Numbered from the stretch's first letter, positions 5,632-50,624 are shown. The stretch: 64,000 nucleotides of DNA from a virus (IMGVR_UViG_3300025875_000007:1-64000), one strand, 5' to 3'. The notes: generated by a model from the sequence alone, not told the origin. Numbers and translations: made by a program.

Positions 5632-5659
5632 TTCGCGTACAATACGTGGCCTATAATAG
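5632..5659 (+). promoter_or_regulatory. phage promoter-motif copy (TTCGCG-N14-TATAAT)
   Basis: TTCGCG at 5632-5637, a 14-nt spacer, TATAAT at 5652-5657. It lies upstream of the nuclease/RNAP gene string. Confidence 0.5.
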
Positions 5660-5717
5660 AAGGGGTGAGGGTTTGCTTCTTGTTTTTGCCTGATTTTTCG
5701 ACGAAAGGGAGACTCTA

Positions 5718-9590: not shown

Positions 9591-9842
9591 CATGCTGTAG
9601 CATGGCATGGCACGCCATGCATAGCACCACCCTTGCTGCCTACCAACCGATGCATACATTGGTCGGTTGGTAGGCAGTCAAGTATTCCTCACACAATTAT
9701 TCATGATGTCGCAATAGACGACGCAATTAATTATGAATAGTTGTGTGAGGAATACATGGCCTCTCGCCGTTTGCAACTTAACGGACACATCGGACATATG
9801 AGATAGGGGGGGGAGGGGGGTCTTCGCAAACCCACCCCCCTC
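9591..9842. repeat. cluster of five inverted repeats/hairpins in a non-coding gap
   Basis: CATGCT-GT-AGCATG at 9591-9604. GCATGGC-AC-GCCATGC at 9605-9620. 15-bp stem CTGCCTACCAACCGA/TCGGTTGGTAGGCAG at 9636-9677. 23-nt arms (22/23) at 9682-9704 and 9733-9755. G-run/C-run hairpin GAGGGGGG/CCCCCCTC at 9813-9842. Confidence 0.6.
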
Positions 9843-13597: not shown

Positions 13598-14000
13598 AAC
13601 ATATACAGAGCTCGACGAGCTAGACACCTTTGAGGAGCGCTTTCGATATTTGGCGCTTCATGGAGATGTTGGTCGATCAACCTTTGGTTTTGATCGTCAT
13701 ATTAACCAACAATTCTACACCTCAAGACAGTGGCGTCAGATTCGACACCACGTCATTGCTCGAGATCTAGGTTGTGATCTCGGGGTTCATGGATACGATA
13801 TTCACGGACAGCTGTTGATCCATCATATCAATCCGCTAAGGCCCGAGGACATTGTCCATGCCAATCCGGATATTCTGGATCCTGAATTCTTGATTACTAC
13901 AACTCAAAGAACGCACAACGCCATTCACTTTGGTGACGAGAGACAACTTCCCCGGCCTCTCGCCTCAAGGCGACCTGGCGACACAACACCCTGGAAATAA
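13587..14000 (+). CDS. HNH endonuclease
   Basis: RQWRQIRHHVIARDLGCDLG...LIHHINPL...THNAIH. ATG 13587 overlaps the upstream stop; the track ORF opens at 13530. Confidence 0.8.
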   Translation: MTIKTYTELDELDTFEERFRYLALHGDVGRSTFGFDRHINQQFYTSRQWRQIRHHVIARDLGCDLGVHGYDIHGQLLIHHINPLRPEDIVHANPDILDPEFLITTTQRTHNAIHFGDERQLPRPLASRRPGDTTPWK

Positions 14001-15855: not shown

Positions 15856-16479
15856 GTGAGCGATAGTATTCTAATCAGTACCAAGAAGGCTCTGGACGTT
15901 CCAGAAAACTATGATGTCTTCGACCAAAACATCATTATGCACATCAACAGCGTGTTCTCAACTCTGTCTCAGCTTGGTATTGGTCCCGAAGAGGGATTTG
16001 AGATTGAGGATGACACTTCACTGTGGAGTCACTTCCTTGGCGGCAACGCAAAGTTCAACTTTGTAAAGACTTACATGTTCCTGCAAGTCAAGTTGCTCTT
16101 TGATCCTCCTGGTACATCGTTTCTTCAAGATTCAATCAAGGAGAAGATCAAAGAACTTGAGTATCGAATTGTTACCGAGGTAGAAACGCGTTCAACAAGA
16201 ATTAAGAGCGCGTTTAAGAGAATTAGTGCGAACCGTGGTGACGAACTTCGAGTTCATGTCGCAAATCCTGCAGGAAAAACTTATATCGATGATGCGGGAT
16301 CATACGAGGCGGTCTTTGTGCCATTGGGTGGGACGCGGGAAAGAAGCGCTAGTCTTGACACATCAAACAAGGCTAGAGGTGTTTTGTATCTAATGGTCAA
16401 TGTTGAAGACGGCACGTATACAGTTCGCAGGTTAAGTCCTAGGCGTACTATTCTCGTACTCGAGGTGAATGCAGAATGA
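15856..16479 (+). CDS. hypothetical structural-module protein (N-terminus resembles gp6-type head-tail connector)
   Basis: GTG after [40 protein letters not shown] resembles connector N-termini. Confidence 0.5.
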
Positions 16480-36440: not shown

Positions 36441-36491
36441 ATTCAGAAGGAGGGTCTTCATATCTAAAAAGTGAAGACCCTCCTTCTGAAT
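36441..36491 (+). terminator. strong 20-bp hairpin (terminator candidate) inside the tail module
   Basis: ATTCAGAAGGAGGGTCTTCA (36441-36460) pairs perfectly with TGAAGACCCTCCTTCTGAAT (36472-36491) across an 11-nt loop, directly after the stop at 36437. Confidence 0.65.
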
Positions 36492-39216: not shown

Positions 39217-41100
39217 ATGGAGTGGGTCTATAACGCGTACTGGGGTACGCTCTGTGTTCATGTTGGCCCATACACAGGTGGCTCTTATCTGACCCCGCCT
39301 TCGGGACCACTTGAGTCTGGTACTGGAGAGTATTATCTTGTAGTTGCCGATCCGGCCACCGTTGAGGACCTTTCCTATGAGGGTTTTGGCGGAAGTATCT
39401 TCGCCGGTATTGGACAAGACGATTCAAAGCCCGAAGGATACTACACCTTCGACGACACCACTCCGGTTCCGGCGGGCTGGGATTTGTACATCATTTGGTA
39501 CGACGCGGGCTACAATGATCCGCCGTCTAATCCTCCGGACCCCACAACGTTATATTCTGCAGATCAAGCTGCGGGTGGTACACGAGCTGTGGGCGAGCCT
39601 CCTCCCCCGCCTCCAATTCCACCCGCTACTAATACAACCCCAGAGAAGGCTGCTGTAGCGGCCGATTTGTATCCCAATCCCGATCCTCCAACGAGAATTC
39701 ACAGCTACACCCTAGAGACCGCTGGCGTCACGTGGTGGGTTGTTCGATGCTATCCTCGTACAACCGACCCAGTTAGTGATGCATCTGGTGGCTTCACCGC
39801 CACGGTGCCCTCTGATGTTCAATTAACTGTGTGGCGAAGGAACGGATTGCCGCTGGGTGACGTCCCAGCAACCGAACCGATTGCTAGCGGGTCAGGTGCA
39901 GTTAGCGTACCCACATCTCCTGGCCAAGAGATGTACCTACTTCGAATTACGGGTAGCGGCGAGCGACGCGATGGTTTGATAATCGTTGGGCTTGGAATGA
40001 AGGTCGGACAGTATTGGGGAACGGCTGTCGATACCGACTGGCATATTGTTCCTGGCGAGCACACCGGCTGGGGACATATGTGGCCCGGCACGGAGTTCTA
40101 CGATGGATATGTCGGTTTTGTGGGTAGCTATATCGAAACTGGTTTGGTGGCGCATCAGGTTCACCGTCAGTTCGTTCACGATATCGGTCTTGATGGAACC
40201 ACTACGACTACCGATGGGACTAGTGAGCAAGCTCGCCAACTTGAGGATGGCGGCGCTAGTGTCTTTGTTCAGTCCAGTTTCGCAGAGGGTGGTTGGGGTC
40301 ACCTCGGTACTGAAGATCAAGGCTCAATTCATTATGATGACGCCACCGTTCAACATTACTGGAATATCGAGCTTGGAGCCCGTGCAGCAGACTTCATTAG
40401 GCGGGCCACCAATACTTCATGGACAGCTCCGCTAGACTGGGCCGAAATCATAGATATGCCAGCGGATTCTGAGGTCACATTTGATGATCTTAGTACTTAT
40501 CGTTGGGAAGCTGAGTATGACCTGGATTATTTTGAGTTGAATGAAAAAGTTCGACTTACTACCTATATGAAGGGTACTGGGTCTACGTATGGCGACAACC
40601 CTGTATACCATTACTGGACACGCGGTAAGATTGCCAACGATGATGGTCCGGGATATTTTGGACCTGACTCTGGGTACCACGACTTAGGTTACGTGAATGT
40701 AAGTCCAAACGCGGTTGCTTATGAAGAAAGTCACGGTCCAAACCAAATTCCACGTGGAGAACTCACGCTTCCTACGGAATATCCGCTCCGAACAGATTTG
40801 GATCGGGAAACATGGCGCGTTGCACCGAACAAGCACGCTGACGAGCGAGTAAACGAGTATGATCCTAGTCTGATTATCGGTCAGGGAATGGGTTGGGACG
40901 CCAAGTTTGTTATTCAGGTATATTTGATCTTGCGCATTCCGCGTTATCGCTTCCGGCTCTATTACATCGCTGGAAAGAAAGAAATCCCAATGCGTCAGCG
41001 CCATCGGGATGATGGACTAGCAACCGATGCTCGAGAGTTTAAAGGTCACGCTAGTTCTCAACAAGTTTCTAATCGTCGAGGCGGAAGGACATATTACTAA
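39217..41100 (+). CDS. minor tail / receptor-binding protein candidate
   Basis: 627 aa, last large gene of the tail block. GGGAGGA RBS. Confidence 0.6.
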   Translation: MEWVYNAYWGTLCVHVGPYTGGSYLTPPSGPLESGTGEYYLVVADPATVEDLSYEGFGGSIFAGIGQDDSKPEGYYTFDDTTPVPAGWDLYIIWYDAGYNDPPSNPPDPTTLYSADQAAGGTRAVGEPPPPPPIPPATNTTPEKAAVAADLYPNPDPPTRIHSYTLETAGVTWWVVRCYPRTTDPVSDASGGFTATVPSDVQLTVWRRNGLPLGDVPATEPIASGSGAVSVPTSPGQEMYLLRITGSGERRDGLIIVGLGMKVGQYWGTAVDTDWHIVPGEHTGWGHMWPGTEFYDGYVGFVGSYIETGLVAHQVHRQFVHDIGLDGTTTTTDGTSEQARQLEDGGASVFVQSSFAEGGWGHLGTEDQGSIHYDDATVQHYWNIELGARAADFIRRATNTSWTAPLDWAEIIDMPADSEVTFDDLSTYRWEAEYDLDYFELNEKVRLTTYMKGTGSTYGDNPVYHYWTRGKIANDDGPGYFGPDSGYHDLGYVNVSPNAVAYEESHGPNQIPRGELTLPTEYPLRTDLDRETWRVAPNKHADERVNEYDPSLIIGQGMGWDAKFVIQVYLILRIPRYRFRLYYIAGKKEIPMRQRHRDDGLATDAREFKGHASSQQVSNRRGGRTYY

Positions 41101-41633
41101 TGGCTCATGTAGCAAATGATGAGTACACTCCCCTTTTCAGCAATCGTGTGTACGATGTGCTGAAGTATATTGCGCTGGTCATTCTTCCCGCCGCAAGCGC
41201 TTTATATTTCGGGTTGGGTGAGATTTGGGACCTTCCCAAGGTCACCGAGGTTATCGGTACGATTTCTGTACTGGATACAGTTCTCGGTATGATTATTCGA
41301 TCCGATAACATTCGCTATCGAAATAGCGATGCTCGGTTTGACGGGAAGATTGCTGAGGTTGAGGTTAAGGGCGACAACAATTATTCGCTAGACGTCAAGG
41401 GTGATCCAGCAGAGGTTCTTGAGACTCAAGAAGAGGTTCTGCTTAAGGTCAGTCCGGAAGTGGCGCCAGTTGAGGTTGTTGAAACTCCTCCTTCGCCTAA
41501 GCCACCGCCTCGTAAGAGGGCTCCGCGTAAGAAGCCGGTGGTAGGAATTGCTCCGCCCGCTCCGGTCGAGCCTCCAGTTCCGGTGGTTTCTAAGAAAGTG
41601 ACACGCAAGGCTGCTCCGCGTAATCCTGAGTAG
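41100..41633 (+). CDS. holin (phage r1t holin family-like) with a Pro-rich tail
   Basis: FSNRVYDVLKYIALVILPAASALYFGLGEIWDLPKVTEVIGTISVLDTVLGMII matches my memory of the r1t-type holin pattern. Confidence 0.65.
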   Translation: MAHVANDEYTPLFSNRVYDVLKYIALVILPAASALYFGLGEIWDLPKVTEVIGTISVLDTVLGMIIRSDNIRYRNSDARFDGKIAEVEVKGDNNYSLDVKGDPAEVLETQEEVLLKVSPEVAPVEVVETPPSPKPPPRKRAPRKKPVVGIAPPAPVEPPVPVVSKKVTRKAAPRNPE

Positions 41634-41661
41634 GTCGCGATATTTACATCTCCTATAAAGG
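41634..41661 (+). promoter_or_regulatory. promoter-motif copy (GTCGCG-N14-TATAAA)
   Basis: TCGCG at 41635-41639, hexamer at 41654-41659, 29 nt before ATG 41688. Confidence 0.5.
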
Positions 41662-41687
41662 AAGCCCCCCTCTACGTTAGGAGAAAT

Positions 41688-41978
41688 ATGTTCAGCAAGA
41701 AGCCTTGCCCTGAAGAGACGGAGCTTAACACCGAGATCACTCGCGTGCTTGCCGTGCTTGCACGATGTGAGCCCGATTCCGACGAGTACACCAGCGCAGT
41801 CAAGAACCTCGCGACGCTGTACGCGCAGAAGGAGACCCTTCCTGTCACGCGCGTCAGCCCCGACACGTTCTGGACCGTCGTTGCCAACCTCGCCGGACTC
41901 GCTCTCGTCACGCAGTACGAGCGCGCGAACGTCCTCGGTGGTTACGCCATCAAGCTCGTCAGGCAGCTGAAGAACTGA
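41688..41978 (+). CDS. hypothetical protein (96 aa)
   Basis: Track ORF with an AGGAGA RBS. High GC3. Confidence 0.7.
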   Translation: MFSKKPCPEETELNTEITRVLAVLARCEPDSDEYTSAVKNLATLYAQKETLPVTRVSPDTFWTVVANLAGLALVTQYERANVLGGYAIKLVRQLKN

Positions 41979-42007
41979 GCAGTCCCCGCTAGACCCTTCC
42001 GAAGTCG

Positions 42008-42052
42008 GAGGGCACGCGAACCTTAAACAAGTTTGCGTGCCCTCTGATTTTC
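42008..42052 (+). terminator. intrinsic terminator
   Basis: GAGGGCACGC (42008-42017) pairs with GCGTGCCCTC (42035-42044), followed by TGATTTT. Confidence 0.7.
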
Positions 42053-42080
42053 GGTTGAATTACATATCCTCTAATTTTTG

Positions 42081-42108
42081 GTCGCGTGATATTCATCGCC
42101 TATAATGA
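42081..42108 (+). promoter_or_regulatory. promoter-motif copy
   Basis: GTCGCG-N14-TATAAT(42101-42106)-GA. Confidence 0.55.
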
Positions 42109-42137
42109 CCCGACTCCACCAATTCTAAGGAGATCCG

Positions 42138-42371
42138 ATGCACCCGACCCTCAAGGTTCTGGTGGCCATCTTCGTCACCACTCTTGCCAACCACAAGTTC
42201 TACCAGTACAAGCTTTCCATGCTCGACGACCTGCACCGCCAGGCCTCGATCAAGGAGTGCATGGAAGGGTGGACGCGCGGCTTCAAGGATGGTGAGCTGG
42301 AAGGCCGCCGGGCCATGTGGCTCGAACACCTGACCGATCCCAAGGCACCCTGGTACAAGTCCGAGTCCTAA
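42138..42371 (+). CDS. small protein (77 aa), N-terminal TM
   Basis: AAGGAGA RBS and its own motif promoter. Confidence 0.7.
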   Translation: MHPTLKVLVAIFVTTLANHKFYQYKLSMLDDLHRQASIKECMEGWTRGFKDGELEGRRAMWLEHLTDPKAPWYKSES

Positions 42372-42375
42372 GGCC

Positions 42376-42403
42376 GGAGCCCCTCACAAGGGCTCTAGTC
42401 TTT
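42376..42403 (+). terminator. conserved hairpin + TAGTCTTT module
   Basis: GAGCCC/GGGCTC stem, then TAGTCTTT at 42396-42403. Confidence 0.5.
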
Positions 42404-42429
42404 CGCGAGATATTCACGCCCTATAATGA
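42402..42429 (+). promoter_or_regulatory. promoter-motif copy
   Basis: TTCGCG-N14-TATAAT(42422-42427)-GA. Confidence 0.55.
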
Positions 42430-42454
42430 CCAGCCCTCAACCTCAGGAGTTCGC

Positions 42455-42565
42455 ATGAAGCTCAAGACCGTCCTCGTCAACCTCGGCGCCTTCGCCACCG
42501 TGTTCATCGCGGCCACCAAGGCGCTCGAGTACTTCGACAAGAAGAACAAGCTCCGCAACAACTGA
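42455..42565 (+). CDS. 36-aa membrane peptide
   Basis: CAGGAG RBS. MKLKTVLVNLGAFATVFIAATKALEYFDKKNKLRNN. It shares the stop of track ORF 42317..42565. Confidence 0.55.
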   Translation: MKLKTVLVNLGAFATVFIAATKALEYFDKKNKLRNN

Positions 42566-42585
42566 CCCGAGATCCGAGACCTCTG

Positions 42586-42616
42586 AAGTCTATGTAACCC
42601 ATAGGCTTTACGTCTT
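42586..42616 (+). terminator. conserved hairpin module
   Basis: AAGTCTATG/CATAGGCTT 9-bp stem, then TACGTCTT. Confidence 0.5.
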
Positions 42617-42642
42617 CGCGGATATTACACGGACTATAACGA
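42615..42642 (+). promoter_or_regulatory. promoter-motif copy
   Basis: TTCGCG-N14-TATAAC(42635-42640)-GA. Confidence 0.5.
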
Positions 42643-42668
42643 CCCCGCTCACAACATCAGGAGTAGAC

Positions 42669-42821
42669 ATGTTCGACCTGTCGCACCCCAAGTCCGTGAC
42701 CCTCATCGTGACGGTCAACCTCGACCCCGTTCCGGGTACCTTCCACACCCAGGAGAGTGCTCAGGAGGGCGTCCAGGCCATCCTCACCTCGATGATCCCG
42801 CACTACAAGCCCGACGTCTAG
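42669..42821 (+). CDS. 50-aa protein, hypothetical
   Basis: CAGGAG RBS then ATG 42669: MFDLSHPKSVTLIVTVNLDPVPGTFHTQESAQEGVQAILTSMIPHYKPDV. It is below the track cutoff. Confidence 0.5.
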   Translation: MFDLSHPKSVTLIVTVNLDPVPGTFHTQESAQEGVQAILTSMIPHYKPDV

Positions 42822-42854
42822 ATCCACCCGATGCACGCGTAGTCACAGACCTCT

Positions 42855-42879
42855 GAAGCCCTCATGGGTTTTAAGTCTT
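42855..42879 (+). terminator. weak hairpin + TAAGTCTT module
   Basis: GAAGCCC/GGGTTTT pair with wobbles, then AAGTCTT. Confidence 0.35.
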
Positions 42880-42880
42880 A

Positions 42881-42908
42881 TTCGCGAGAAAAACAAGCCC
42901 TATAATGA
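42881..42908 (+). promoter_or_regulatory. promoter-motif copy
   Basis: TTCGCG-N14-TATAAT(42901-42906)-GA. Confidence 0.55.
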
Positions 42909-42939
42909 CCCAACCACTACAACTGTTAGGAGCCCCACC

Positions 42940-43200
42940 GTGGACCTCAGCAGCAGCGTGATCATGCCTCGAGAAGACTTCATCGAGCTCACGACATGCG
43001 CCTTCAACCAGCCCCCCACGTCGCCCGCCGAGCGCGTCGCCGTCACCCTGCAGACCACCATCATCTTCGCAGGGATCGCCGCCGCCTTCAGCGGTGCCAC
43101 GTACGTCTGGTACCGGCTCATGTCGAAGCTCGAGTCGGAGAAGACCGAGAACGAGATCACCGTCATCGACGCCCGCGCCAACAGCTACAAGCAGCAGTAG
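42940..43200 (+). CDS. small membrane protein (86 aa)
   Basis: GTG after TAGGAG. TM VAVTLQTTIIFAGIAAAFSGATYVWY. Confidence 0.65.
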   Translation: MDLSSSVIMPREDFIELTTCAFNQPPTSPAERVAVTLQTTIIFAGIAAAFSGATYVWYRLMSKLESEKTENEITVIDARANSYKQQ

Positions 43201-43215
43201 ATCAGTCAAGACCCC

Positions 43216-43249
43216 GAGTCTATGCCCACCAGCATAGGCTCTAGGTCTT
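43216..43249 (+). terminator. conserved hairpin + TAGGTCTT module (repeat family copy A)
   Basis: GAGTCTATGC/GCATAGGCTC 10-bp stem. Confidence 0.55.
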
Positions 43250-43266
43250 CAAAATAGGAGTGTTTT

Positions 43267-43440
43267 ATGGCTGCATCCTTCGTCGATCCTAAACTTGATG
43301 AGTTCATAAAGTTCTTAGAAAGCCTTTCGGAAATTCCCCTGTCTCCTTGGCAAAAAGAGCTTGCAAAGGTGGTTTTAAGCGGTAAGAAGTTCCGCATCGT
43401 CCAAGGTCGCAAGGGATCGTACATCGTGACAGACGCGTAA
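43267..43440 (+). CDS. 57-aa protein, hypothetical (AT-richer insert, no motif promoter)
   Basis: TAGGAG RBS. MAASFVDPKLDEFIKFLESLSEIPLSPWQKELAKVVLSGKKFRIVQGRKGSYIVTDA. Confidence 0.45.
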   Translation: MAASFVDPKLDEFIKFLESLSEIPLSPWQKELAKVVLSGKKFRIVQGRKGSYIVTDA

Positions 43441-43459
43441 CTTTCACGCCCTATAGTGA
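43432..43459 (+). promoter_or_regulatory. promoter-motif copy (ACGCG variant)
   Basis: ACGCG(43433-43437)-N14-TATAGT(43452-43457)-GA. Confidence 0.45.
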
Positions 43460-43494
43460 AAGACCCATCGCCATCCCGACAGAAAGAAGTCGTC

Positions 43495-43719
43495 ATGACC
43501 ATGTTCGCCAAGCTCATCACCGAAGCCACCATCGAGGAGATCACCGAGACCAACGACGGTGTGCGCCCCGCCGACGAGACCCTGAACAACAACACGTTCT
43601 ACGTCTACCCGGACGCGCACACCGACGCCCACGCGGAGATCCTCACCCGAGCCGCCTTCGGCAAGAAGTACGCCTGGCACGACGTCAACTCGACCGACAA
43701 CATCGTCGTCCCGCGCTAG
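43495..43719 (+). CDS. small acidic protein (74 aa)
   Basis: ATG 43495 within track ORF 43456... AGAAAGAAG lies upstream. Confidence 0.6.
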   Translation: MTMFAKLITEATIEEITETNDGVRPADETLNNNTFYVYPDAHTDAHAEILTRAAFGKKYAWHDVNSTDNIVVPR

Positions 43720-43732
43720 TCCTTCACCAAGG

Positions 43733-43760
43733 CTAGGCCCCCTCCAGGGGCTTTAGTCTT
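43733..43760 (+). terminator. conserved hairpin + TTAGTCTTT (part of an exact 48-nt repeat)
   Basis: GCCCC/GGGGC stem. Positions 43721-43768 are identical to 44038-44085. Confidence 0.5.
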
Positions 43761-43762
43761 TG

Positions 43763-43790
43763 CTCGCGCAAAAGACATGGACCCTAATGA
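43763..43790 (+). promoter_or_regulatory. promoter-motif copy (degenerate hexamer CCTAAT)
   Basis: CTCGCG-N14-CCTAAT-GA. Confidence 0.4.
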
Positions 43791-43815
43791 AGGACCCCGA
43801 CCCAGAAGGAGAGAC

Positions 43816-44034
43816 ATGTCCAAGCAATTCAAGCGTTCCGACGCCTGCACCAAGCTCATCGAGTCCATCTACATGATCAGCTCCGGACCAGACATCACGC
43901 CCCCAGACCTCAACCGAGGCTTCCTGGAGGCGCTGACCTGCTTCGCCGCGACCATGAGTGGCCACACGAGCGTCATCGCAGGCACCGACAGCGACGGAGA
44001 AGTCGAAGACTTCATGTTCATCTTCCGCAACTAG
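43816..44034 (+). CDS. small protein (72 aa)
   Basis: GAAGGAGAGA RBS then ATG 43816 within track ORF 43777... Confidence 0.6.
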   Translation: MSKQFKRSDACTKLIESIYMISSGPDITPPDLNRGFLEALTCFAATMSGHTSVIAGTDSDGEVEDFMFIFRN

Positions 44035-44049
44035 CACCCTTCACCAAGG

Positions 44050-44077
44050 CTAGGCCCCCTCCAGGGGCTTTAGTCTT
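44050..44077 (+). terminator. conserved hairpin + TTAGTCTTT (second copy of the 48-nt repeat)
   Basis: Identical to the copy at 43733-43760. Confidence 0.5.
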
Positions 44078-44079
44078 TG

Positions 44080-44107
44080 CTCGCGTTATATTCATCTCCT
44101 ATAGTGA
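44080..44107 (+). promoter_or_regulatory. promoter-motif copy
   Basis: CTCGCG-N14-TATAGT(44100-44105)-GA. Confidence 0.55.
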
Positions 44108-44135
44108 AGACCCCCTACCCCATCAAGGAGATCCC

Positions 44136-44372
44136 ATGCACGGACCCTACGGCTTCGAGAAGACCACCCGCACGGTGGCCGACCTCCAGGAGGACGACCG
44201 ATTTTACATCGGTGGACTCATGTACAAGGTCCTCGGCGACCCGCTCACCAATTCGGTGAACGGCGAAGTCCAGGTCCGCATGTACCCCGTGTTCGTCGAC
44301 TTCCTCCCGGACATCACCGTCATGACCCTTCCCGGCCGGAACCCGATCGAGATCCACAACCAGCCCGCGTAG
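44136..44372 (+). CDS. small protein (78 aa)
   Basis: AAGGAGA RBS. Track ORF. Confidence 0.7.
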   Translation: MHGPYGFEKTTRTVADLQEDDRFYIGGLMYKVLGDPLTNSVNGEVQVRMYPVFVDFLPDITVMTLPGRNPIEIHNQPA

Positions 44373-44384
44373 ACCCTTCGAAGG

Positions 44385-44417
44385 CTAGAGCCCCCATCAC
44401 CATGGGCTTTAGTCTTT
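44385..44417 (+). terminator. conserved hairpin + TTAGTCTTT module
   Basis: AGCCC...GGGCT stem, then TTAGTCTTT ending at 44417. Confidence 0.45.
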
Positions 44418-44456
44418 GCAAATCTAAAAAATTCCCGGGGGAGGTTTTCAGTCAAA

Positions 44457-44484
44457 GTCGCGTAAAAAACACGCACTATAATGA
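44457..44484 (+). promoter_or_regulatory. promoter-motif copy
   Basis: GTCGCG-N14-TATAAT(44477-44482)-GA. Confidence 0.55.
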
Positions 44485-44511
44485 CCCGACCCATCTGATT
44501 GGAGAGCCCCC

Positions 44512-44730
44512 ATGCTCAACAAGCTCAAGAAGTCCAACCGGTACCAGTACACCTGTCCCGACGTCATCCACTACCGCAAGAACCAGTACCGGCTCGCGAT
44601 CTACTCCAACGTGTTCGCAGTCGCTACCCAGGTCCTCTTCTGGGGTGGCCTCGTCGCGATGAGCAAGCGCCTGGACCCGAAGCCGACCCTCAAGCCCGTG
44701 GAGCCCCTCAGCCCCTCCGACGCCAGCTAG
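44512..44730 (+). CDS. small membrane protein (72 aa)
   Basis: GGAGAG RBS. TM IYSNVFAVATQVLFWGGLVAM. Confidence 0.7.
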   Translation: MLNKLKKSNRYQYTCPDVIHYRKNQYRLAIYSNVFAVATQVLFWGGLVAMSKRLDPKPTLKPVEPLSPSDAS

Positions 44731-44745
44731 TCCCGTCAAGACCCC

Positions 44746-44779
44746 GAGTCTATGCCCACAAGCATAGGCTCTAGGTCTT
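44746..44779 (+). terminator. conserved hairpin + TAGGTCTT (repeat family copy B)
   Basis: The 35-nt core 44745-44779 is identical to 45953-45987 and differs by 1 nt from 43215-43249. Confidence 0.55.
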
Positions 44780-44787
44780 ACTGAAAT

Positions 44788-44815
44788 ATCGCGACATATA
44801 CATATCCTATAGTGA
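44788..44815 (+). promoter_or_regulatory. promoter-motif copy
   Basis: ATCGCG-N14-TATAGT(44808-44813)-GA. Confidence 0.55.
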
Positions 44816-44843
44816 ACGTCCATCTCTCACGAAGGAGTTTTAT

Positions 44844-44948
44844 ATGCCACGACTCATTCAGTACGTCCTCTGGACTTGGTTCTCGTGCATCCTCATGTAC
44901 GGCGGAACCATCCTGTTCGTCTTTGCGCTCGTCAGCATCATGACCTAG
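44844..44948 (+). CDS. 34-aa membrane peptide
   Basis: GAAGGAG RBS. MPRLIQYVLWTWFSCILMYGGTILFVFALVSIMT. Confidence 0.5.
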   Translation: MPRLIQYVLWTWFSCILMYGGTILFVFALVSIMT

Positions 44949-44974
44949 CTTCTACAGATCTAGTTCAAGGCTAC

Positions 44975-44998
44975 AGCCCTACACGGGCTTTAGTCTTT
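44975..44998 (+). terminator. conserved hairpin + TTAGTCTTT module
   Basis: AGCCC-TACAC-GGGCT, then TTAGTCTTT. Confidence 0.45.
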
Positions 44999-45003
44999 CG
45001 CAA

Positions 45004-45076
45004 GGGCCTATAGCTCAATTGGCAGAGCAGCGGACTTTTAATCCGCGGGTTCAGGGTTCGAGTCCCTGTGGGCCCA
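45004..45076 (+). tRNA. tRNA-Lys (anticodon UUU)
   Basis: Cloverleaf folded by hand. Acceptor GGGCCTA/TGGGCCC, D-arm AGCTCAATTGGCAGAGC, anticodon arm GCGGA-CTTTTAA-TCCGC, T-arm CAGGG-TTCGAGT-CCCTG. Confidence 0.85.
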
Positions 45077-45144
45077 CTCGCAAGGGGAGTCGTCACTAAG
45101 ATTTACCAACATGCAGTCCCCCATGATATTCTGCATGTTGGCTG

Positions 45145-45217
45145 GTCCTCATCGTCCAGTGGCCTAGGACTCCACCCTTTCAAGGTGGCTACGCGGGTTC
45201 GAATCCCGTTGAGGGCA
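45145..45217 (+). tRNA. tRNA-Glu (anticodon UUC)
   Basis: Acceptor GTCCTCA/TGAGGGC, D-arm GTCC-AGTGGCCTA-GGAC, anticodon arm CCACC-CTTTCAA-GGTGG, T-arm GCGGG-TTCGAAT-CCCGT. Confidence 0.85.
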
Positions 45218-45250
45218 CGATACATACCAACCAAAATAGGAGCGATAATT

Positions 45251-45445
45251 ATGGTTCAGATGGTTATTCAGAGGATTTCTGATAAGAAGTTTGCTTCGCT
45301 GCGCGGTTTCATGAACCACATAACGGACGCCGAATTCTTCGACGACGAAGTACATGCATTGGAAGTCATGCAAGACTACACGAAGAGCGGTACTCCATGC
45401 GAGTTGCTTTACGTCACAATCACCATGTCAAACGTAAAGGGCTAG
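45251..45445 (+). CDS. hypothetical protein (64 aa)
   Basis: TAGGAG RBS then ATG 45251. The upstream part of track ORF 45068.. overlaps both tRNAs and is rejected. Confidence 0.55.
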   Translation: MVQMVIQRISDKKFASLRGFMNHITDAEFFDDEVHALEVMQDYTKSGTPCELLYVTITMSNVKG

Positions 45446-45449
45446 TCTC

Positions 45450-45599
45450 ATGGAATCGGTTCAAATTGTAGTCACAAGACTAACGCCATCGCCAGGAGTA
45501 ACGCTTTACTCCATTCAAAACGCAGACGGTAAGGTGACGCAGGCGGAAGCGGTGGCTATACTTCGGGCAGCTGCTGATGATATGGAAAGTCGTAAATAG
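45450..45599 (+). CDS. hypothetical protein (49 aa)
   Basis: ATG 45450: MESVQIVVTRLTPSPGVTLYSIQNADGKVTQAEAVAILRAAADDMESRK. Confidence 0.4.
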   Translation: MESVQIVVTRLTPSPGVTLYSIQNADGKVTQAEAVAILRAAADDMESRK

Positions 45600-45604
45600 G
45601 ATCA

Positions 45605-45632
45605 CTCGCGAAAAAAACACGCCCTATAACGA
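45605..45632 (+). promoter_or_regulatory. promoter-motif copy
   Basis: CTCGCG-N14-TATAAC(45625-45630)-GA. Confidence 0.5.
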
Positions 45633-45661
45633 CCCTGTTCATCCGACAGATTGGAAATGTC

Positions 45662-45925
45662 ATGACCGACACCTCCGTCACCCCCACCACCGTCCCCACC
45701 GTCCCCCCGTCCCCGACGAGCGTCCCCGTGCCGCCCGCCGAGACCGAGACGGTCGCCAAGGTCGCCGGCGTCCTCGTGCGCGCGAAGGGTGGAGCCTCCA
45801 AGCTCCTCACCCGCTTCGCCGTGCCCGTCGCCACCGGTGCCCTGACCGGCCTCCTCGTCAACGCCAAGCGCAACCGCTCGGAGAACGAGGACGACGACGT
45901 GGTGGTCGACGAGTCGAACGACTAG
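45662..45925 (+). CDS. Pro/Thr-rich small protein (87 aa) with one hydrophobic segment
   Basis: Track ORF. High GC3. Confidence 0.65.
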   Translation: MTDTSVTPTTVPTVPPSPTSVPVPPAETETVAKVAGVLVRAKGGASKLLTRFAVPVATGALTGLLVNAKRNRSENEDDDVVVDESND

Positions 45926-45953
45926 TCCCATCCGCCTCAACAGATCAGGCCTC

Positions 45954-45988
45954 GAGTCTATGCCCACAAGCATAGGCTCTAGGTCTTT
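45954..45988 (+). terminator. conserved hairpin + TAGGTCTTT (repeat family copy C)
   Basis: GAGTCTATGC/GCATAGGCTC stem. Confidence 0.55.
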
Positions 45989-45991
45989 CTG

Positions 45992-46019
45992 TTCGCGATA
46001 TTTACATCGCCCATAGTGA
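45992..46019 (+). promoter_or_regulatory. promoter-motif copy
   Basis: TTCGCG-N14-CATAGT(46012-46017)-GA. Confidence 0.5.
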
Positions 46020-46140
46020 AGAAATATCCCTTACTATGGAGTGTAAGATGAGATCACTGTGTTATGTCAATAGCACCCCCGGAAGCCCTGACAAGCGGAC
46101 AAATTGTGAAACTTCTTTCCCTTTTATTTTTGGAGGAAAC

Positions 46141-46341
46141 ATGACACACGAGTATCGAGCGGCCGGAAGCATCGACCTCATGCCCCCCGCAACACTCGAA
46201 GATGTTGAAGCGTTCTGTAGAGAAGCTCGAAAGCTTGGTGTCTCTGAGAAGTCACCACTACACACAACCCGACAAGGACTAGTCGGTCCGATTGTAGGTT
46301 GGTATTTCTCAGTTCCTGTAGTACCGGCAGCTCCGCAGTAG
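46141..46341 (+). CDS. hypothetical protein (66 aa)
   Basis: TGGAGGAAAC RBS then ATG 46141. The upstream part of track ORF 46036.. is AT-rich and lacks an RBS. Confidence 0.55.
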   Translation: MTHEYRAAGSIDLMPPATLEDVEAFCREARKLGVSEKSPLHTTRQGLVGPIVGWYFSVPVVPAAPQ

Positions 46342-46369
46342 TTCGCGTAAAATACACATCCCATAGTAG
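46342..46369 (+). promoter_or_regulatory. promoter-motif copy
   Basis: TTCGCG-N14-CATAGT(46362-46367)-AG. Confidence 0.5.
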
Positions 46370-46493
46370 AGGAGTCCTGAAAAGGATCCGAGACACTAAT
46401 GTGTAGGTGAAAACCCTACCCGGAGTGGTAGCCATTAAAGATAAGGCTACTTAACGGACTGTTTTAGTTGGACAGTCACCTCCTCTATTTTTT
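46368..46493 (+). ncRNA. ~125-nt structured RNA / leader closed by a long-range stem and a U-run
   Basis: AGAGGAG (46368-46374) pairs with CTCCTCT (46480-46486), followed by ATTTTTT. Internal hairpins: GTAGCC/GGCTAC and GACTGT/ACAGTC. There is no credible ORF. Confidence 0.45.
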
Positions 46494-46515
46494 CGCCTCA
46501 ATTTAAGGGAGCTCG

Positions 46516-46719
46516 ATGGATGCACTTGCTCTAACAATCATGCAATTTTTGGACAGCGTCATTATCGTCGCTGTACTAGCGTTTGTTGTCTGGCTGGTTC
46601 TTAGCCTGACCCCGAAGCCTCGTCCCGTCTCGGGGCAAACATATCTCTACATCAAGCCGTCAGACGACGACTTCTTCGACATGATTACGGAGTTCCGCAA
46701 TGACATCCCTGGTAAGTAG
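46516..46719 (+). CDS. small membrane protein (67 aa)
   Basis: AAGGGAG RBS. TM VIIVAVLAFVVWLVLSL. Confidence 0.65.
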   Translation: MDALALTIMQFLDSVIIVAVLAFVVWLVLSLTPKPRPVSGQTYLYIKPSDDDFFDMITEFRNDIPGK

Positions 46720-47482
46720 GTTCAAGGCAATCGAGAAGCTGGCGATCGACAACTCGCCCGTTCTTCTGACCGCAATCGGTGTGGCCGGTGTCATCGGCAC
46801 TGCAATCCTGACCCACCGTGCGGCGCTCAAAACGCACCGCGTGCTCCTCGAGGTCGAGGACAACCAGCTCGCAAACAAGGAGCCATTCACGCCTCTGACT
46901 CCGAAGGAGAAGGTGAAGGCGACCTGGACGCACTACATCCCCCCGGTCGTCTCAGGCACAGCCACCATCACCGCCATCGTGCTGGCCAACCACATCAGTA
47001 CGAAGCGTGCGGCAGCCCTTGCTGTTGCGTGCACGATCTCGGAGAAGGCGTACACCGAGTACCGCGACAAGGTCGTAGAGCGATTCGGTGAAAAGGAAGA
47101 GAACCAGATCCGAAACGGTATCGCACAGGACCGGATCGATAAGGCGCCGCCCACCGAGGGCAACGTGCTCATGGTTTCTGGCGGTGATCACCTCTTCATG
47201 GAGATGTACACCGGCCGGTACTTCCGAAGCGATATCGAGACGATTCGTCGAGCCGAGAATCAGCTCAACCACAAGCTCAACACAAACGGCTACGCCACCG
47301 TGTCTGATTTCTATGACATGATCGGCCTTGCGCACACCGCCATCTCTGATGAGATTGGTTGGAACAGCGACAAGCTGATGGCTGTGGACTACCAGGCCAT
47401 CCTGAGCGAGGATGGTCAGCCGTGCGTTGCGATCAACTTCGTCACGGGTCCGGTCCGCGACTACACTCGGTTTCACGGCTAA
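46700..47482 (+). CDS. conserved phage protein with an N-terminal TM (paralog of 51245..52141)
   Basis: SPVLLTAIGVAGVIGTAILTHRAALKTH opening. C-terminal GYATVSDFYDMIGL...IGW pattern. Confidence 0.65.
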   Translation: MTSLVSRFKAIEKLAIDNSPVLLTAIGVAGVIGTAILTHRAALKTHRVLLEVEDNQLANKEPFTPLTPKEKVKATWTHYIPPVVSGTATITAIVLANHISTKRAAALAVACTISEKAYTEYRDKVVERFGEKEENQIRNGIAQDRIDKAPPTEGNVLMVSGGDHLFMEMYTGRYFRSDIETIRRAENQLNHKLNTNGYATVSDFYDMIGLAHTAISDEIGWNSDKLMAVDYQAILSEDGQPCVAINFVTGPVRDYTRFHG

Positions 47483-47534
47483 GGAACACTTCAAGCAGCT
47501 GCGCATATTCGAGCGAGGAAACGTAGTAGGCGAG

Positions 47535-47648
47535 ATGTGCGTTACTGAGGAGTGTCCTTCCTGCGGATCACGAGAGTCACGATACGCAGAGAACGATCTC
47601 ATGCAATGTGAGTACTGCCCGGCGATATTCCCGAAGCAGTTTCTGTAG
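47535..47648 (+). CDS. zinc-ribbon peptide (37 aa)
   Basis: MCVTEECPSCGSRESRYAENDLMQCEYCPAIFPKQFL has CxxC...CxxC. ATG 47535 within track ORF 47412... Confidence 0.45.
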   Translation: MCVTEECPSCGSRESRYAENDLMQCEYCPAIFPKQFL

Positions 47649-47735
47649 TACAAGGGGGTACGGCCTTAAGCGGCGTACTTAAACGACACTACTTTGTTGT
47701 GCGCCCCTCACAACCATCTCTTTAAGGAGACAAAT

Positions 47736-47924
47736 ATGCAGCCCAGCCTGTTCACCTACCAGACCTCGATCGACGAGCCGCCGCACCCCGACCCCAACGT
47801 TGTGGCACGCCTCGTGGAGGCGGAGCTGAGCGACTGCGAGTTCGGCTGCAAGATCTACCAGGACACCCGTAACTCGAACGTCCGTATCCTCGTCCACAGC
47901 GCGGTCTACGGCTGCCGCAAGTAG
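47736..47924 (+). CDS. small protein (62 aa), tandem paralog 1
   Basis: AAGGAGA RBS. LFTYQTSIDEPPHPDPNVVARLVEAELSDCEFGCKIYQD. Confidence 0.6.
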   Translation: MQPSLFTYQTSIDEPPHPDPNVVARLVEAELSDCEFGCKIYQDTRNSNVRILVHSAVYGCRK

Positions 47925-47934
47925 GAGTCTAATT

Positions 47935-48117
47935 ATGTCGGACAAGCTGTTTACGTACACGATCAGACAAGACCAGCTCGACAAGCACCCGGATCAGGCG
48001 GTTGTCAAGCGCTTGGTAGAAGCGTCTGCAAGTGACTGCACGGACGCCTGCAAGATCTACAAGGACCCTCAGACCACTTTGCGATTGCTGGTACACCGAT
48101 GCCCCCCAGCCGACTAA
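47935..48117 (+). CDS. small protein (60 aa), tandem paralog 2
   Basis: LFTYTIRQDQLDKHPDQAVVKRLVEASASDCTDACKIYKD aligns with the preceding gene. Confidence 0.6.
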   Translation: MSDKLFTYTIRQDQLDKHPDQAVVKRLVEASASDCTDACKIYKDPQTTLRLLVHRCPPAD

Positions 48118-48317
48118 CGCCCAGAAGCATTGCTGTAACATGCCGTAGATGCGGTAAATTCAAAAGGCGCGAGACAACAGTGCTCGATCGATACAATAAT
48201 CGATACTGCTTGGATTGCGCCATTGCCGTTGAACTGTGTGAGCTTTGCGGATCTACGAATCTCGACGACATATCCATGTACGGCCAACTCCACTACGACG
48301 ATTGGTGCTTAAAATAA
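48099..48317 (+). CDS. Cys-rich zinc-finger-like protein (72 aa)
   Basis: CRRCG...CLDC...CELCG give three CxxC pairs. Confidence 0.55.
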   Translation: MPPSRLTPRSIAVTCRRCGKFKRRETTVLDRYNNRYCLDCAIAVELCELCGSTNLDDISMYGQLHYDDWCLK

Positions 48318-48484
48318 TGCACAAGTTCATCAACGAGGTCCAGAAGGGCAACGTCATCATCGACGGCAGCAACCGTACTACGGTCTACAAGGTCGAGCCC
48401 TGCCCGTCTTCCAAGGGCACCAAGACTCACATCAACGGCAAGGACTGCTGGGAGAACTTCTCCGAAGTCCGAGTCCAGGACTAA
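48317..48484 (+). CDS. hypothetical protein (55 aa)
   Basis: The ATG overlaps the upstream TAA. It lies within track ORF 48245... Confidence 0.45.
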   Translation: MHKFINEVQKGNVIIDGSNRTTVYKVEPCPSSKGTKTHINGKDCWENFSEVRVQD

Positions 48485-48519
48485 TCCAGTTCCACATCCA
48501 AATTTTGAAGGAGCTAAAT

Positions 48520-48831
48520 ATGGCAACCAAAGAAGAAATCGACATCTTCACGCGAGTCAGCCAAAGGATCGAGCAGCAGGACGCTAGCCCCAGCGATTTT
48601 GCGAAGCGCGCCTATATTCGGGAGCTCAACGAGGGGCTCTACGAGATTGCTCTGTATGGACCGTTCTCGGATGAAGAGGTCGGCGGGCTCCTTAACGACG
48701 CCTTCGCTGACGCCATGGCGAGCGGAGGCGCAGACATCGAGGAAGTTCGTCTCACGGACGAAGACGCCTCCAAGCACTACATCAACCCACGCGAGTTCTG
48801 GATGAGACAGCTCGCAACACTTACGGAGTGA
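48520..48831 (+). CDS. hypothetical acidic protein (103 aa)
   Basis: GAAGGAG RBS then ATG 48520. Confidence 0.6.
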   Translation: MATKEEIDIFTRVSQRIEQQDASPSDFAKRAYIRELNEGLYEIALYGPFSDEEVGGLLNDAFADAMASGGADIEEVRLTDEDASKHYINPREFWMRQLATLTE

Positions 48832-48832
48832 A

Positions 48833-49438
48833 ATGATCACGAAGACCATCACGTTCGAGGACTTCAACGGTAAGACTCTTACCGAGGAGTTCTGCTTCCA
48901 CCTCTCTGAGGACAAGGTCATTGAGATGGAGCTGAGCAAGAAGGGCGGTCTTACTGAGTACATCAAGCGGATCGTTGCCGAGGAGGACGGTGAGAAGCTG
49001 GTTGCCATCTTCAAGGACCTCCTGACAAAGACCGTCGGTAAGAAGTCTCCGGATGGTCGTAAGTTCATCCAAAACCAGGAGATCACTGACGACTTCGTTC
49101 AGACCCCTGCATATTCCAAGCTCTTTGTTGAACTGTCTACGGATGCGGGCCAGGCTGCGGCATTCATCAACGGTGTTGTTCCCGCTTCGATGCAGGCGGA
49201 GATCAAGAAGAAGCAGCAGGCTGTTACTGATCTTCCGTCTGTCGAGGGTGCTGTTGCGCTCGCGCAGGATGCTCAGGCGTCTACCCCGCTCTCGCAGCAG
49301 GACGAGTTCGAGGAGAAGATGAAGGACCCGGATTGGGTTCCGACACAGAAGGACCTACAGAACATGTCTCCGGCACAGATCGCAGCCGCCTTCCAACGCA
49401 AGCAGGCTCAGACCGAGCGAGCTCAGAGCACTCCGTAG
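48833..49438 (+). CDS. conserved phage protein (201 aa), function unknown
   Basis: Track ORF, tightly coupled to the upstream gene. Confidence 0.65.
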   Translation: MITKTITFEDFNGKTLTEEFCFHLSEDKVIEMELSKKGGLTEYIKRIVAEEDGEKLVAIFKDLLTKTVGKKSPDGRKFIQNQEITDDFVQTPAYSKLFVELSTDAGQAAAFINGVVPASMQAEIKKKQQAVTDLPSVEGAVALAQDAQASTPLSQQDEFEEKMKDPDWVPTQKDLQNMSPAQIAAAFQRKQAQTERAQSTP

Positions 49439-49466
49439 TTCGCGTAAAATACACGGGCCATAGTGA
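49439..49466 (+). promoter_or_regulatory. promoter-motif copy
   Basis: TTCGCG-N14-CATAGT(49459-49464)-GA, starting 1 nt after the upstream stop. Confidence 0.5.
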
Positions 49467-49562
49467 GACCACTCAAAAGCCCGAAAGGGATTCATAGGAG
49501 CAATACCTCTAAAGCGCGAAAGCGAATCACAGGAGCAATACCTACGTGGTCTCTATTTTTTT
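49465..49562 (+). ncRNA. ~100-nt structured RNA with two 35-nt-period direct repeats, closed by an 8-bp stem + U7
   Basis: GAGACCAC (49465-49472) pairs with GTGGTCTC (49546-49553), then TATTTTTTT. Repeat units at 49476-49508 and 49511-49543 each hold a GAAA-tetraloop hairpin plus AGGAGCAATACCT. One base pair covaries between units (CCC/GGG vs CGC/GCG). Confidence 0.55.
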
Positions 49563-49598
49563 CGACCCCTCCCACACCCACTAGTTAGGAATCCAATT

Positions 49599-49958
49599 AT
49601 GACCGAGATCCGCGAGGACGAGATCGTCGACGCCGAGATTGTCAATGGCAACGACACCAAGTCCCTGAAGAAGTTCAACCCTGGGCGTAGCGGCCTCAAG
49701 CTGATCGCTACAAGCTCGGTCCGGTTTGTGGTCTCCTCTGCGATCACGACGCTCGTCCCGGTCGAGACCAAGAAGGAGAAGCGCAAGGTCTTCGTTGCGT
49801 CCATGGTGCTCTCCGGTATGCTCAACGAGCAAGTCAAGCCGTATGTCGACCGCGAGATCGACGAGGCAATCGACTTCTGCAAGGGCGTGGTCGAGCACAT
49901 CAACAAGATGCAGCAGGCGCAGGCAGAGGCCGCCGAGTCTGACGTTCCTAACCCGTGA
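49599..49958 (+). CDS. hypothetical protein (119 aa), two moderately hydrophobic segments
   Basis: Track ORF with a TAGGAA RBS. Confidence 0.65.
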   Translation: MTEIREDEIVDAEIVNGNDTKSLKKFNPGRSGLKLIATSSVRFVVSSAITTLVPVETKKEKRKVFVASMVLSGMLNEQVKPYVDREIDEAIDFCKGVVEHINKMQQAQAEAAESDVPNP

Positions 49959-49985
49959 CAGGCTAGACATTCGGAAGAGGCACCA

Positions 49986-50624
49986 GTGGATCAGTTCCCA
50001 GGCAACAGCAAGCTGCCCGATAGGGCACGGGCTCGCGAAGAGCCCCCTAAGAAGGTAGTAGAGAGCGTCGTTCAAGGGAAGGTCACTCGACGCAAGACCC
50101 CGATTGGTCGTCGTCTGACACAGAACCTGATTGGCGGCGACGCTCAGAGCGTCTGGGGTTACATGCTCGGGGAGATCGTAATTCCCTACGCTCGTGACAT
50201 GATCTACGAGGCCTTTGCGGGCGGTCTCGAGCGAGCAATCTTCGGAACCGAGTCCGGCGGACGCAGTCGGGGACGAAGTCGAGGGGGTCGTACTGACTAT
50301 CAGTCGCCCTTCAACCGCAATCGAGGTTCTTCGCGATACGACGAGCCTCGACGTGAGATGAGTAGGCGCGGTCGGAGTATGCACAGCTTCGACGAGATTG
50401 TGCTGGACAGCCGCATCGAGGCCGAGGAAGTGCTCGATCGCCTCGAGGCCATGCTCGACAAGTACGACAGCGTCACGGTTGCCGACTTCTACGAGCTTTG
50501 TGGAGTCGAGGCAACCTACACGGATCAGAAGTACGGCTGGACGAACCTTGCTAGCGCTAAGCCCCAGCGTATTCCCGGTGGTGGGCATCTAGTGCGGATG
50601 CCCCCTCCCGAGCCCCTCGACTAA
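49986..50624 (+). CDS. conserved phage protein (212 aa), function unknown
   Basis: Track ORF. I recall the C-terminal SVTVADFYELCGVEATYTDQKYGW pattern from other phages. Confidence 0.65.
   Translation: MDQFPGNSKLPDRARAREEPPKKVVESVVQGKVTRRKTPIGRRLTQNLIGGDAQSVWGYMLGEIVIPYARDMIYEAFAGGLERAIFGTESGGRSRGRSRGGRTDYQSPFNRNRGSSRYDEPRREMSRRGRSMHSFDEIVLDSRIEAEEVLDRLEAMLDKYDSVTVADFYELCGVEATYTDQKYGWTNLASAKPQRIPGGGHLVRMPPPEPLD

Follow-up and report, generated by a model that had tools for sequence, protein, structure and literature searches.

We analyzed the first 64 kb (hereafter, the window) of IMGVR_UViG_3300025875_000007, an 86,784-bp single-contig phage genome with a GC content of about 52% and all of its genes on the plus strand. 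We found that the short intergenic modules that separate genes of a tiny-gene array located downstream of the lysis genes (42.1-46.4 kb) are RNA hairpins, in which a recurrent tail pairs with an upstream foot. The hairpin is conserved, with compensatory changes, in the same orientation and next to the same promoter in phages of four actinobacterial host genera. The module is probably a leaky terminator of the intrinsic type that also protects the 3′ end of the upstream mRNA and, together with promoters, makes up a joint for cassette swapping similar to the promoter-early stem-loop (PeSL) joints of other phages.

One hairpin from foot to tail

In every copy of the module, the tail GTCTT (or GGTCTT) pairs with an upstream foot AAGRC (or AAGACC), and the tail lies inside the stem in 10 of 10 minimum-free-energy folds. 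Because the tail pairs with the 5′ foot, each module is one long hairpin of 31 to 42 nt, with a GC-rich top on a basal helix and, in some copies, an internal loop. The 3′ strand of the basal helix (...YTYTA-N-GTCTT) is U-rich, and the 5′ foot is A/G-rich. Closed RAGRC...GTCTT hairpins are found 13 times on the plus strand and 3 times on the minus strand, compared with 0 to 4 in 30 Markov simulations. A looser scan for footed hairpins was dropped, being too permissive and showing little strand bias before filtering.

An earlier note, made from the sequence alone, had listed 10 intergenic hairpins in this array (starting at 42376, 42586, 42855, 43216, 43733, 44050, 44385, 44746, 44975, and 45954) and described them as differing stems followed by a sequence-specific tail. 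All 10 are present, and each folds as a single RNA hairpin (−13 to −24.5 kcal/mol; z scores of −2.3 to −7.8 against shuffled sequences). The stems are indeed variable, but they are not unrelated: they fall into three related flavors, one with a CTC/C internal loop, one fully paired, and one with a long stem and a CC/TA internal loop. The tail, however, is not an independent sequence signal, as it is the 3′ strand of the basal helix and covaries with the 5′ foot across phages. The tail motif that the note took to be shared occurs in 8 of the 10 modules, while the remaining two carry TACGTCTT at 42616 and TAAGTCTT at 42879. Similarly, the TCGCG promoter said to come usually after the hairpins does so in 8 of 10 cases; directly past the tail at 43249 comes a ribosome site with its gene, and 6 nt past the tail at 44997 a tRNA gene. 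The repeats were described correctly: positions 43721-43768 and 44038-44085 are identical over 48 nt, with the identity ending at both borders and terminating exactly on the TCGCG of the following promoter, and the 35-nt core at 44745-44779 recurs exactly at 45953-45987 and with one mismatch at 43215-43249.

The tail sequence by itself is overrepresented (TAGTCTT has 21 occurrences on both strands versus 6.2 expected; TAGGTCTT has 6 versus 1.6), and the only occurrences of these words that lie in modules are eight plus-strand copies at 42.3-46.0 kb. The whole genome contains about 21 modules, 10 in the window and 11 at 70.4-80.4 kb, where a second array of tiny genes is located beyond the window (70-80 kb). 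All of them are on the coding strand, 0 to 25 nt past a stop codon, and confined to the two arrays. A covariance model built from one flavor, the AGAC-CTC form of this phage (model R1), has 20 plus-strand matches and 2 weak minus-strand matches in the genome, with E values down to 8e−16, and its matches include copies overlooked by eye. Rfam covariance models matched only two tRNAs over 41600-50000 (E up to 1), and no Rfam family matched the modules.

Conservation and covariation in actinophages

The large terminase of this phage is about 85% identical to its counterparts in Streptomyces and Gordonia phages. In phages that infect Rhodococcus, Gordonia, Arthrobacter, and Streptomyces, the same promoter is again preceded by hairpins, whose foot is A-rich, whose stem varies, whose loop measures 7 nt, and whose 3′ strand is U-rich. 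The plus strands of ReqiPepy6, Gill, and Scap1 do not contain TAGTCTT itself. Read strictly, this absence is the outcome that the earlier note had named as contradicting its proposal of a dedicated signal. The element itself is nonetheless conserved, and the homologous tails in these three phages finish in ordinary T-runs. One copy in our genome, with its tail end at 74494, is identical at about 30 of 37 positions to a copy in the Streptomyces phage Scap1; their tails differ only by TAGGTTTT versus TAGTCTTT, and the 5′ foot is changed to match. In the closest relative that we found, the IMG/VR contig IMGVR_UViG_3300015374_000008 (81% identity in the candidate RNA polymerase described below), the tails are CTCTAGGTCTT, CTCTAAGTCTTT, and CTTTAGGTT, and they adjoin CGCG promoters or tRNA. 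We propose from these comparisons that TCTT is likely this lineage's version of an ancestral T-run, compensated by A-to-G changes in the foot.

An exact-word scan of IMG/VR with a 14-mer of the tail returned more than 118 single, chance-level matches, and a 17-mer returned two loci, of which one (L002) is a true relative. Model R1 scored 26.6 bits in Scap1 and had 10 matches with E up to 0.1 in 80 IMG/VR loci (best matches, 40.4 and 39.1 bits). As R1 is too lineage-specific, we replaced it with a cross-phage covariance model (R2). In known phages and this genome, R2 has 52 sense matches and 1 antisense match. In 1.59 Mb of IMG/VR sequence around the polymerase genes of 80 uncultured relatives, it has 79 matches at E up to 0.01, which are distributed over 39 loci and are all sense (79 sense, 0 antisense).

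The paired structure is maintained by compensatory changes. RNAalifold, applied to 23 elements taken from six phages, predicts a helix of 12 bp of which the foot is a part. In this set, 89% of cells are paired, compared with 70% after shuffling (0 of 500 shuffles), and there are 55 double changes versus 19 (0 of 500 shuffles); sliding the partner strand lowers pairing to at most 65%. The same holds for 43 further independent R2 matches from uncultured relatives (94% paired versus 74%; 104 double changes versus 31). Moreover, the sense RNA is more stable than the antisense RNA in 41 of 48 elements, and G-U pairs make up 61 of 631 pairs (about 10%). Therefore, the constraint acts on the transcript and not on duplex DNA. 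The hairpin structure is under selection.

Across the family, the constant features are the U-rich 3′ strand ending in TTTT and the A-rich foot, which covary, and the letters that are conserved are those of the CTAACAC/CTAACAA-type loop and of the two C-G pairs that close it. Hairpins with a CTAAC[AC]N loop and a stem of at least 5 bp occur 20 times in sense and never in antisense orientation in five relatives, and their stems vary. Among the model matches, loop conservation is partly circular because the model selects for the loop. In this phage, by contrast, the tail is unusually uniform and the loop has mostly drifted, with about 5 of 21 copies retaining ACAA or ACAC. The uniformity of the tail is best explained by the spread of copies within the lineage together with the compensated TTTT-to-TCTT change.

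One uncultured relative (L203), whose polymerase is 68% identical, keeps the CTAACAC loop in its elements (1511-1551, 1788-1828, and 5854-5894), and its tails end in GGTCTG or GGTTTG followed by C, without a T-run. Thus, the family includes members that have no full U-run.

Probable transcript ends and the polymerase that may read them

The earlier note suggested a termination, pause, or processing signal. Setting aside the free tail, the modules do behave as transcript-end signals: they lie in the sense orientation just past stop codons and usually ahead of a promoter. Their order of A-tract, GC-rich hairpin, and U-rich tract is the one found in intrinsic terminators whose U-tract can be clamped by the A-tract. 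The modules share with such terminators the GC-rich hairpin, the U-rich 3′ strand, the A-rich pairing flank, and the sense orientation past stops, and the tails of sister phages end in TTTT or TTTTT. The GC-rich RNA hairpin of canonical terminators (PMC3993855) is present in all 10 window modules, and a generic terminator scan flags 5 of the 10. The modules differ from intrinsic terminators in their broken T-run (TAGTCTT or TAGGTCTT). Canonical terminators have a U-rich tract of 7 to 9 nt right behind the hairpin (PMC3993855). When counted from the GC-rich top, the tails here have 4 to 7 T per 10 nt; when counted from the full hairpin, there is no U-run after it. They also depart from ordinary terminators in that the loop and closing pairs are conserved in distant phages and many copies would have to be read through.

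We suggest the following course of events. As the RNA polymerase transcribes the U-rich tail, the top stem would form; the helix would then zip downward, and the foot would draw the bases of the tail away from the weak RNA:DNA hybrid, so that some fraction of transcripts would be let go. The released RNA would terminate in a hairpin paired throughout, leaving hardly any single-stranded 3′ end, and this should protect it from 3′ exonucleases. In this lineage, the change of an ancestral T-run to TCTT, with A-to-G changes in the foot, would have traded U-tract quality for a stronger clamp. The modules would be leaky and not tight terminators, because in 8 to 9 of 21 the next feature, with no promoter between, is either a ribosome site with its start codon or a tRNA.

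Several observations weigh against termination as the main role. Three long-stem copies have a poor U-tract (4 to 5 T in 10) and no U-run after the full hairpin, and the mycobacterial RNA polymerase requires a U-tract in vitro (PMC3993855); for the actinobacterial enzyme, a U-tract is needed, and NusG helps at weak ones (PMC3993855). The uncultured relative L203 is likewise without a T-run. In the relatives, the loop (CTAACAC/CTAACAA) and the closing CC/GG are conserved far beyond the needs of a simple terminator, which hints at a specific reader. Finally, since many modules must be read through, termination is possibly a minor part of their function.

The modules could instead be sites of RNA processing or protein binding, at which a double-strand-specific or phage endoribonuclease cuts, or blocks to exonucleases between cistrons that resemble the repetitive extragenic palindromic (REP) hairpins, and not terminators at all. 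RNase III hairpins separate the early genes of phage T7, and REP hairpins act as stabilizers in Escherichia coli operons. Like them, the modules are intercistronic, some have an internal loop (seven copies are two-tiered with a conserved one), and they would provide a protective 3′ stem for the upstream message. In addition, many modules lie between genes without a following promoter, hence inside polycistronic RNA, and a hairpin that abuts a tRNA implies a processed 3′ end at that site. However, the modules differ from both kinds of hairpins in having shorter stems, a U-rich 3′ strand, and, in most cases, promoters of their own. The T7 early type of RNase III site has about two helical turns with an internal loop at the cut, while the stems here, at 12 to 16 bp, are short for RNase III, and the internal loop occurs in some flavors only: the fully paired copies and most relatives lack it. 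Because a majority of the genes have individual promoters, their messages would be separate even if no cutting took place. A search of the window for a complementary trans-acting RNA yielded nothing but the 5′ arms of the modules themselves, and the U-rich 3′ strand conserved in the family is a requirement of a terminator and not of a cleavage site. On these grounds, we consider a processing or binding site improbable.

The promoters interleaved with the modules bear on which polymerase makes these transcripts. They are of the TCGCG-N14-TATAAT type, lie on the plus strand at 42403..46019, and in a motif scan have TCGCG starts at 42403, 42616, 42882, 43433, 43764, 44081, 44458, 44789, 45606, and 45993. 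The cross-phage pattern is CGC[AG]-N-TATAATGA-GACCCC, and the motif is common to ReqiPoco6, ReqiPepy6, Gill, Kardesai, and Scap1. The −10 element is a perfect TATAAT, TCGCG is located only 14 nt upstream of it, and there is no TTGACA-like box at 16 to 18 nt. A generic promoter scan detected none of the TCGCG-type promoters. Of the 21 modules, 12 to 13 have the repeated promoter within 42 nt downstream. The hairpin and promoter as one rigid unit can be ruled out, given that they are separated by anything from 0 to 41 nt and can each stand alone.

A candidate enzyme is encoded by a 910-codon open reading frame at 6555-9287, whose family is annotated as "HTH DNA-binding" (helix-turn-helix). In a proposal by Koert et al. 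(bioRxiv 10.1101/842583), the members of this family are two-barrel RNA polymerases of the YonO/crAss-like type that have the catalytic DxDGD motif; carriers of its homologues are actinophages grouped with Lactococcus and Faecalibacterium phages (bioRxiv 10.1101/842583). The YonO paper contains no termination data.

The footed hairpin could be the cognate transcript-end signal of this uncharacterized family of single-chain two-barrel phage polymerases: a dedicated stop or pause site at which the enzyme, or a phage partner, recognizes the loop and the closing CC/GG pairs, and not a generic intrinsic terminator. The element and one conserved promoter co-occur in phages of four host genera, all with a polymerase homologue; the promoter lacks a −35 element at normal spacing; and the CTAAC[AC]N loops keep their one-sided orientation (20 to 0) in five relatives despite variable stems. 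There is also a precedent, as the virion polymerase of the Thermus phage P23-45 has seven mapped termination sites with a common 26-nt motif (PMC10770324). As is proposed for the phage studied here, P23-45 has a two-barrel single-chain polymerase and sequence-conserved transcript-end signals in its early region; unlike here, where the signals come from sequence, its 3′ ends are mapped, and the two polymerases are only distant relatives.

Other findings make us doubt that the phage enzyme is the reader. The loop has largely drifted in this phage, and the modules persist nonetheless, which makes the loop dispensable here; its conservation among model matches is, as noted, partly circular. A perfect TATAAT −10 element favors the host enzyme. 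A promoter copy lies upstream of the polymerase gene itself (5634 here; 73859 in ReqiPoco6; 72597 in ReqiPepy6), and a promoter ahead of the polymerase gene fits reading by the host polymerase, unless the phage enzyme is injected with the DNA. The Lactococcus phage 1706 belongs to the group that carries the polymerase homologue, and it has no match to the element (zero R2 matches) or to the promoter tail. We therefore hold this possibility to be unlikely, though less so than a processing site. If it were true, actinophages of at least four host genera would share a conserved and portable transcription system that is complete in itself, with promoter, polymerase, and terminator. A paper on promoters of the Streptomyces phage phiSASD1 (PMC13722658) concerns an unrelated phage and has no bearing on this question.

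The copy in this genome is TCGCG...TATAAT at 5633-5660, upstream of genes that lead into the candidate polymerase gene, and it is the variant TATAATAGAAGG; the same variant occurs near the right ends of ReqiPoco6 (73859) and ReqiPepy6 (72597).

Cassette joints and individual modules

The earlier note raised the idea that the modules are seams along which cassettes are shuffled and suggested comparing cassette order in relatives. We made this comparison, and the breakpoints do fall at modules and promoters. In ReqiPoco6 versus ReqiPepy6, collinear alignments of the array open at the start of a promoter or module and run until just past a promoter, and whole cassettes are exclusive to one phage. 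Between this phage and its closest relative, the flanks of the array are syntenic, the numbers of cassettes differ (about 14 versus about 6), and alignments within the array are limited to modules, promoters, the tRNA, and some fragments of genes. Within the arrays of this genome, modules and promoters are the sole repeats, and the adjoining genes are not paralogous. In our proposal, the modules, usually with a promoter, would form repeated joints between unrelated genes, at which homologous recombination adds, removes, and swaps cassettes.

Similar seams are known from T4-type phages, in which the stem-loop of PeSL cassettes was proposed to be a terminator or attenuator (Arbiol et al. 2010, PMC2839356; Comeau et al. 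2014, PMC4122927). The arrays resemble PeSL cassettes in that a repeated stem-loop and promoter stand between small orphan genes and that the ends of insertions, deletions, and replacements between relatives lie in the repeated units, here in two genome pairs. They differ in belonging to an actinophage siphovirus lineage and not to T4-type phages; in a promoter without the −35 box of sigma-70, possibly read by the phage polymerase; and in a hairpin and promoter that are separable (0 to 41 nt apart, either possible alone). We regard the element as a variant of two known kinds, the intrinsic terminator and the PeSL joint, that stands out by how widely it is conserved and by a possible connection with an uncharacterized phage polymerase.

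Breakpoints at modules in mosaic relatives, and exact repeats of 48 nt and 35 to 45 nt beside unrelated genes, would also fit a repeat that acts only as DNA, either a recombination site or a selfish palindromic element with no role in RNA. The strict orientation bias (79 to 0 and 52 to 1), the G-U pairs that stabilize the sense RNA only, the compensatory changes that preserve the helix, and the fixed position directly after stop codons all argue against it, and we regard it as very unlikely. Recombination at the modules is better seen as a by-product of an RNA element.

The combination of RNA element, promoter, and joint has three implications. For annotation, a puzzling tail becomes a searchable RNA element with a covariance model, which marks the ends of single-gene units in a large and widely sampled actinophage group that includes ReqiPoco6, ReqiPepy6, Gill, Kardesai, Scap1, and many uncultured relatives. 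For evolution, the idea that promoter-terminator joints are seams of gene exchange is extended from PeSL cassettes to a very different phage lineage. For transcription, a candidate two-barrel polymerase, a conserved promoter, and a conserved end signal would be three defined parts of a minimal system.

The 10 window modules, all on the plus strand, illustrate how the parts are combined. Module 1 (42370..42402; −17.4 kcal/mol, z = −3.8; R2, 33.2 bits) has the foot AAGGC, a GC-rich top, and the tail GTCTT; its foot overlaps the TAA stop of the gene at 42138-42371, and a TCGCG promoter starts at 42403. Module 2 (42576..42616; R1, 50.2 bits; z = −5.1) has the foot GAGAC, an internal loop, an 11-bp top, and the tail TACGTCTT, whose final T doubles as the first base of the next TCGCG promoter. 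Module 3 (42846..42879; R1, 56.1 bits) combines the foot (C)AGAC, a CTC internal loop, and the tail TAAGTCTT, with a promoter 3 nt on. Module 4 (43208..43249; −23.9 kcal/mol, z = −7.8) is of the long-stem flavor (foot AAGACC, tail GGTCTT) and is not followed by a promoter. An AT-rich gene of 57 codons (43267-43440) is wedged between its tail and the next promoter, and its stop codon falls within this promoter; the gene appears to have been inserted recently and to rely on read-through of the hairpin.

Module 5 (43729..43760; R2, 36.8 bits) is a hairpin fully paired from foot to tail inside the 48-nt repeat at 43721-43768, and module 6 (44046..44077) is identical to it (48-nt repeat, 44038-44085), with a TCGCG promoter at 44081. 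Module 7 (44381..44416; z = −5.6) is an uninterrupted hairpin of 13 to 15 bp, and its promoter is located 41 nt on, past a conserved palindromic spacer. This spacer (44420-44457) contains an AT-flanked palindrome-like sequence, CCCGGGGG, and its region can be aligned to the closest IMG/VR relative; elements of the same type occur once each, upstream of one promoter, in ReqiPoco6, ReqiPepy6, and Scap1. The CCCGGGGG element may be an operator or a second hairpin.

Module 8 (44738..44779; z = −7.3), of the long-stem flavor with the loop CCACAA, has a promoter 10 nt on and aligns with a module of the closest relative. Module 9 (44967..44997; R2, 33.7 bits; z = −5.8) has a family-type loop ending in ACAC. 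A tRNA-Lys begins 6 nt past it, without an intervening promoter, and is followed by a tRNA-Glu (44997-45218). The layout of hairpin and then tRNA is also found in the closest relative; in ReqiPoco6, the tRNA instead has its own promoter. Module 10 (45946..45987; −24.5 kcal/mol, z = −7.0) is again of the long-stem flavor (foot (C)AGGCC, tail GGTCT(T)), with a TCGCG promoter at 45993.

Many modules of the second array have no promoter after them and instead precede a conserved stretch rich in A/T and a strong ribosome site of the TAATTTTAAGGAG type (L147:8094-8125, 9770-9800, 10494-10520, 13688-13715, and 16365-16390; genome 72-80 kb). This arrangement is a second kind of joint. The sole clear paralogous pair between the arrays is that of 46700-47482 and genome positions 74516-75280 (48% amino acid identity over 257 residues).

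Other features of the genome lie outside the module family. A search for related loci with the 627-residue protein encoded upstream of the holin gene (41100-41633, among the lysis genes that precede the array) returned no relatives, and a megablast search of the module region against phage records returned only tRNA matches. A large, near-perfect hairpin on the plus strand at 41999..42054 (−38 kcal/mol), followed by a T-run and alignable to the closest relative, is the main terminator that ends the lysis block ahead of the array. Two more large, near-perfect hairpins, at 36443-36489 and 5703-5745 (−33.5 and −26.7 kcal/mol), are also unlike the module family; one comes after a gene for a 732-residue glycosyl hydrolase-like protein, and the other is just 3′ of the promoter at 5633. 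Finally, the first 127 bases of the genome (1-127) are the same as its last 127 (86658-86784). This identity reflects either a direct terminal repeat or, in a circular or permuted genome, an overlap left by assembly.

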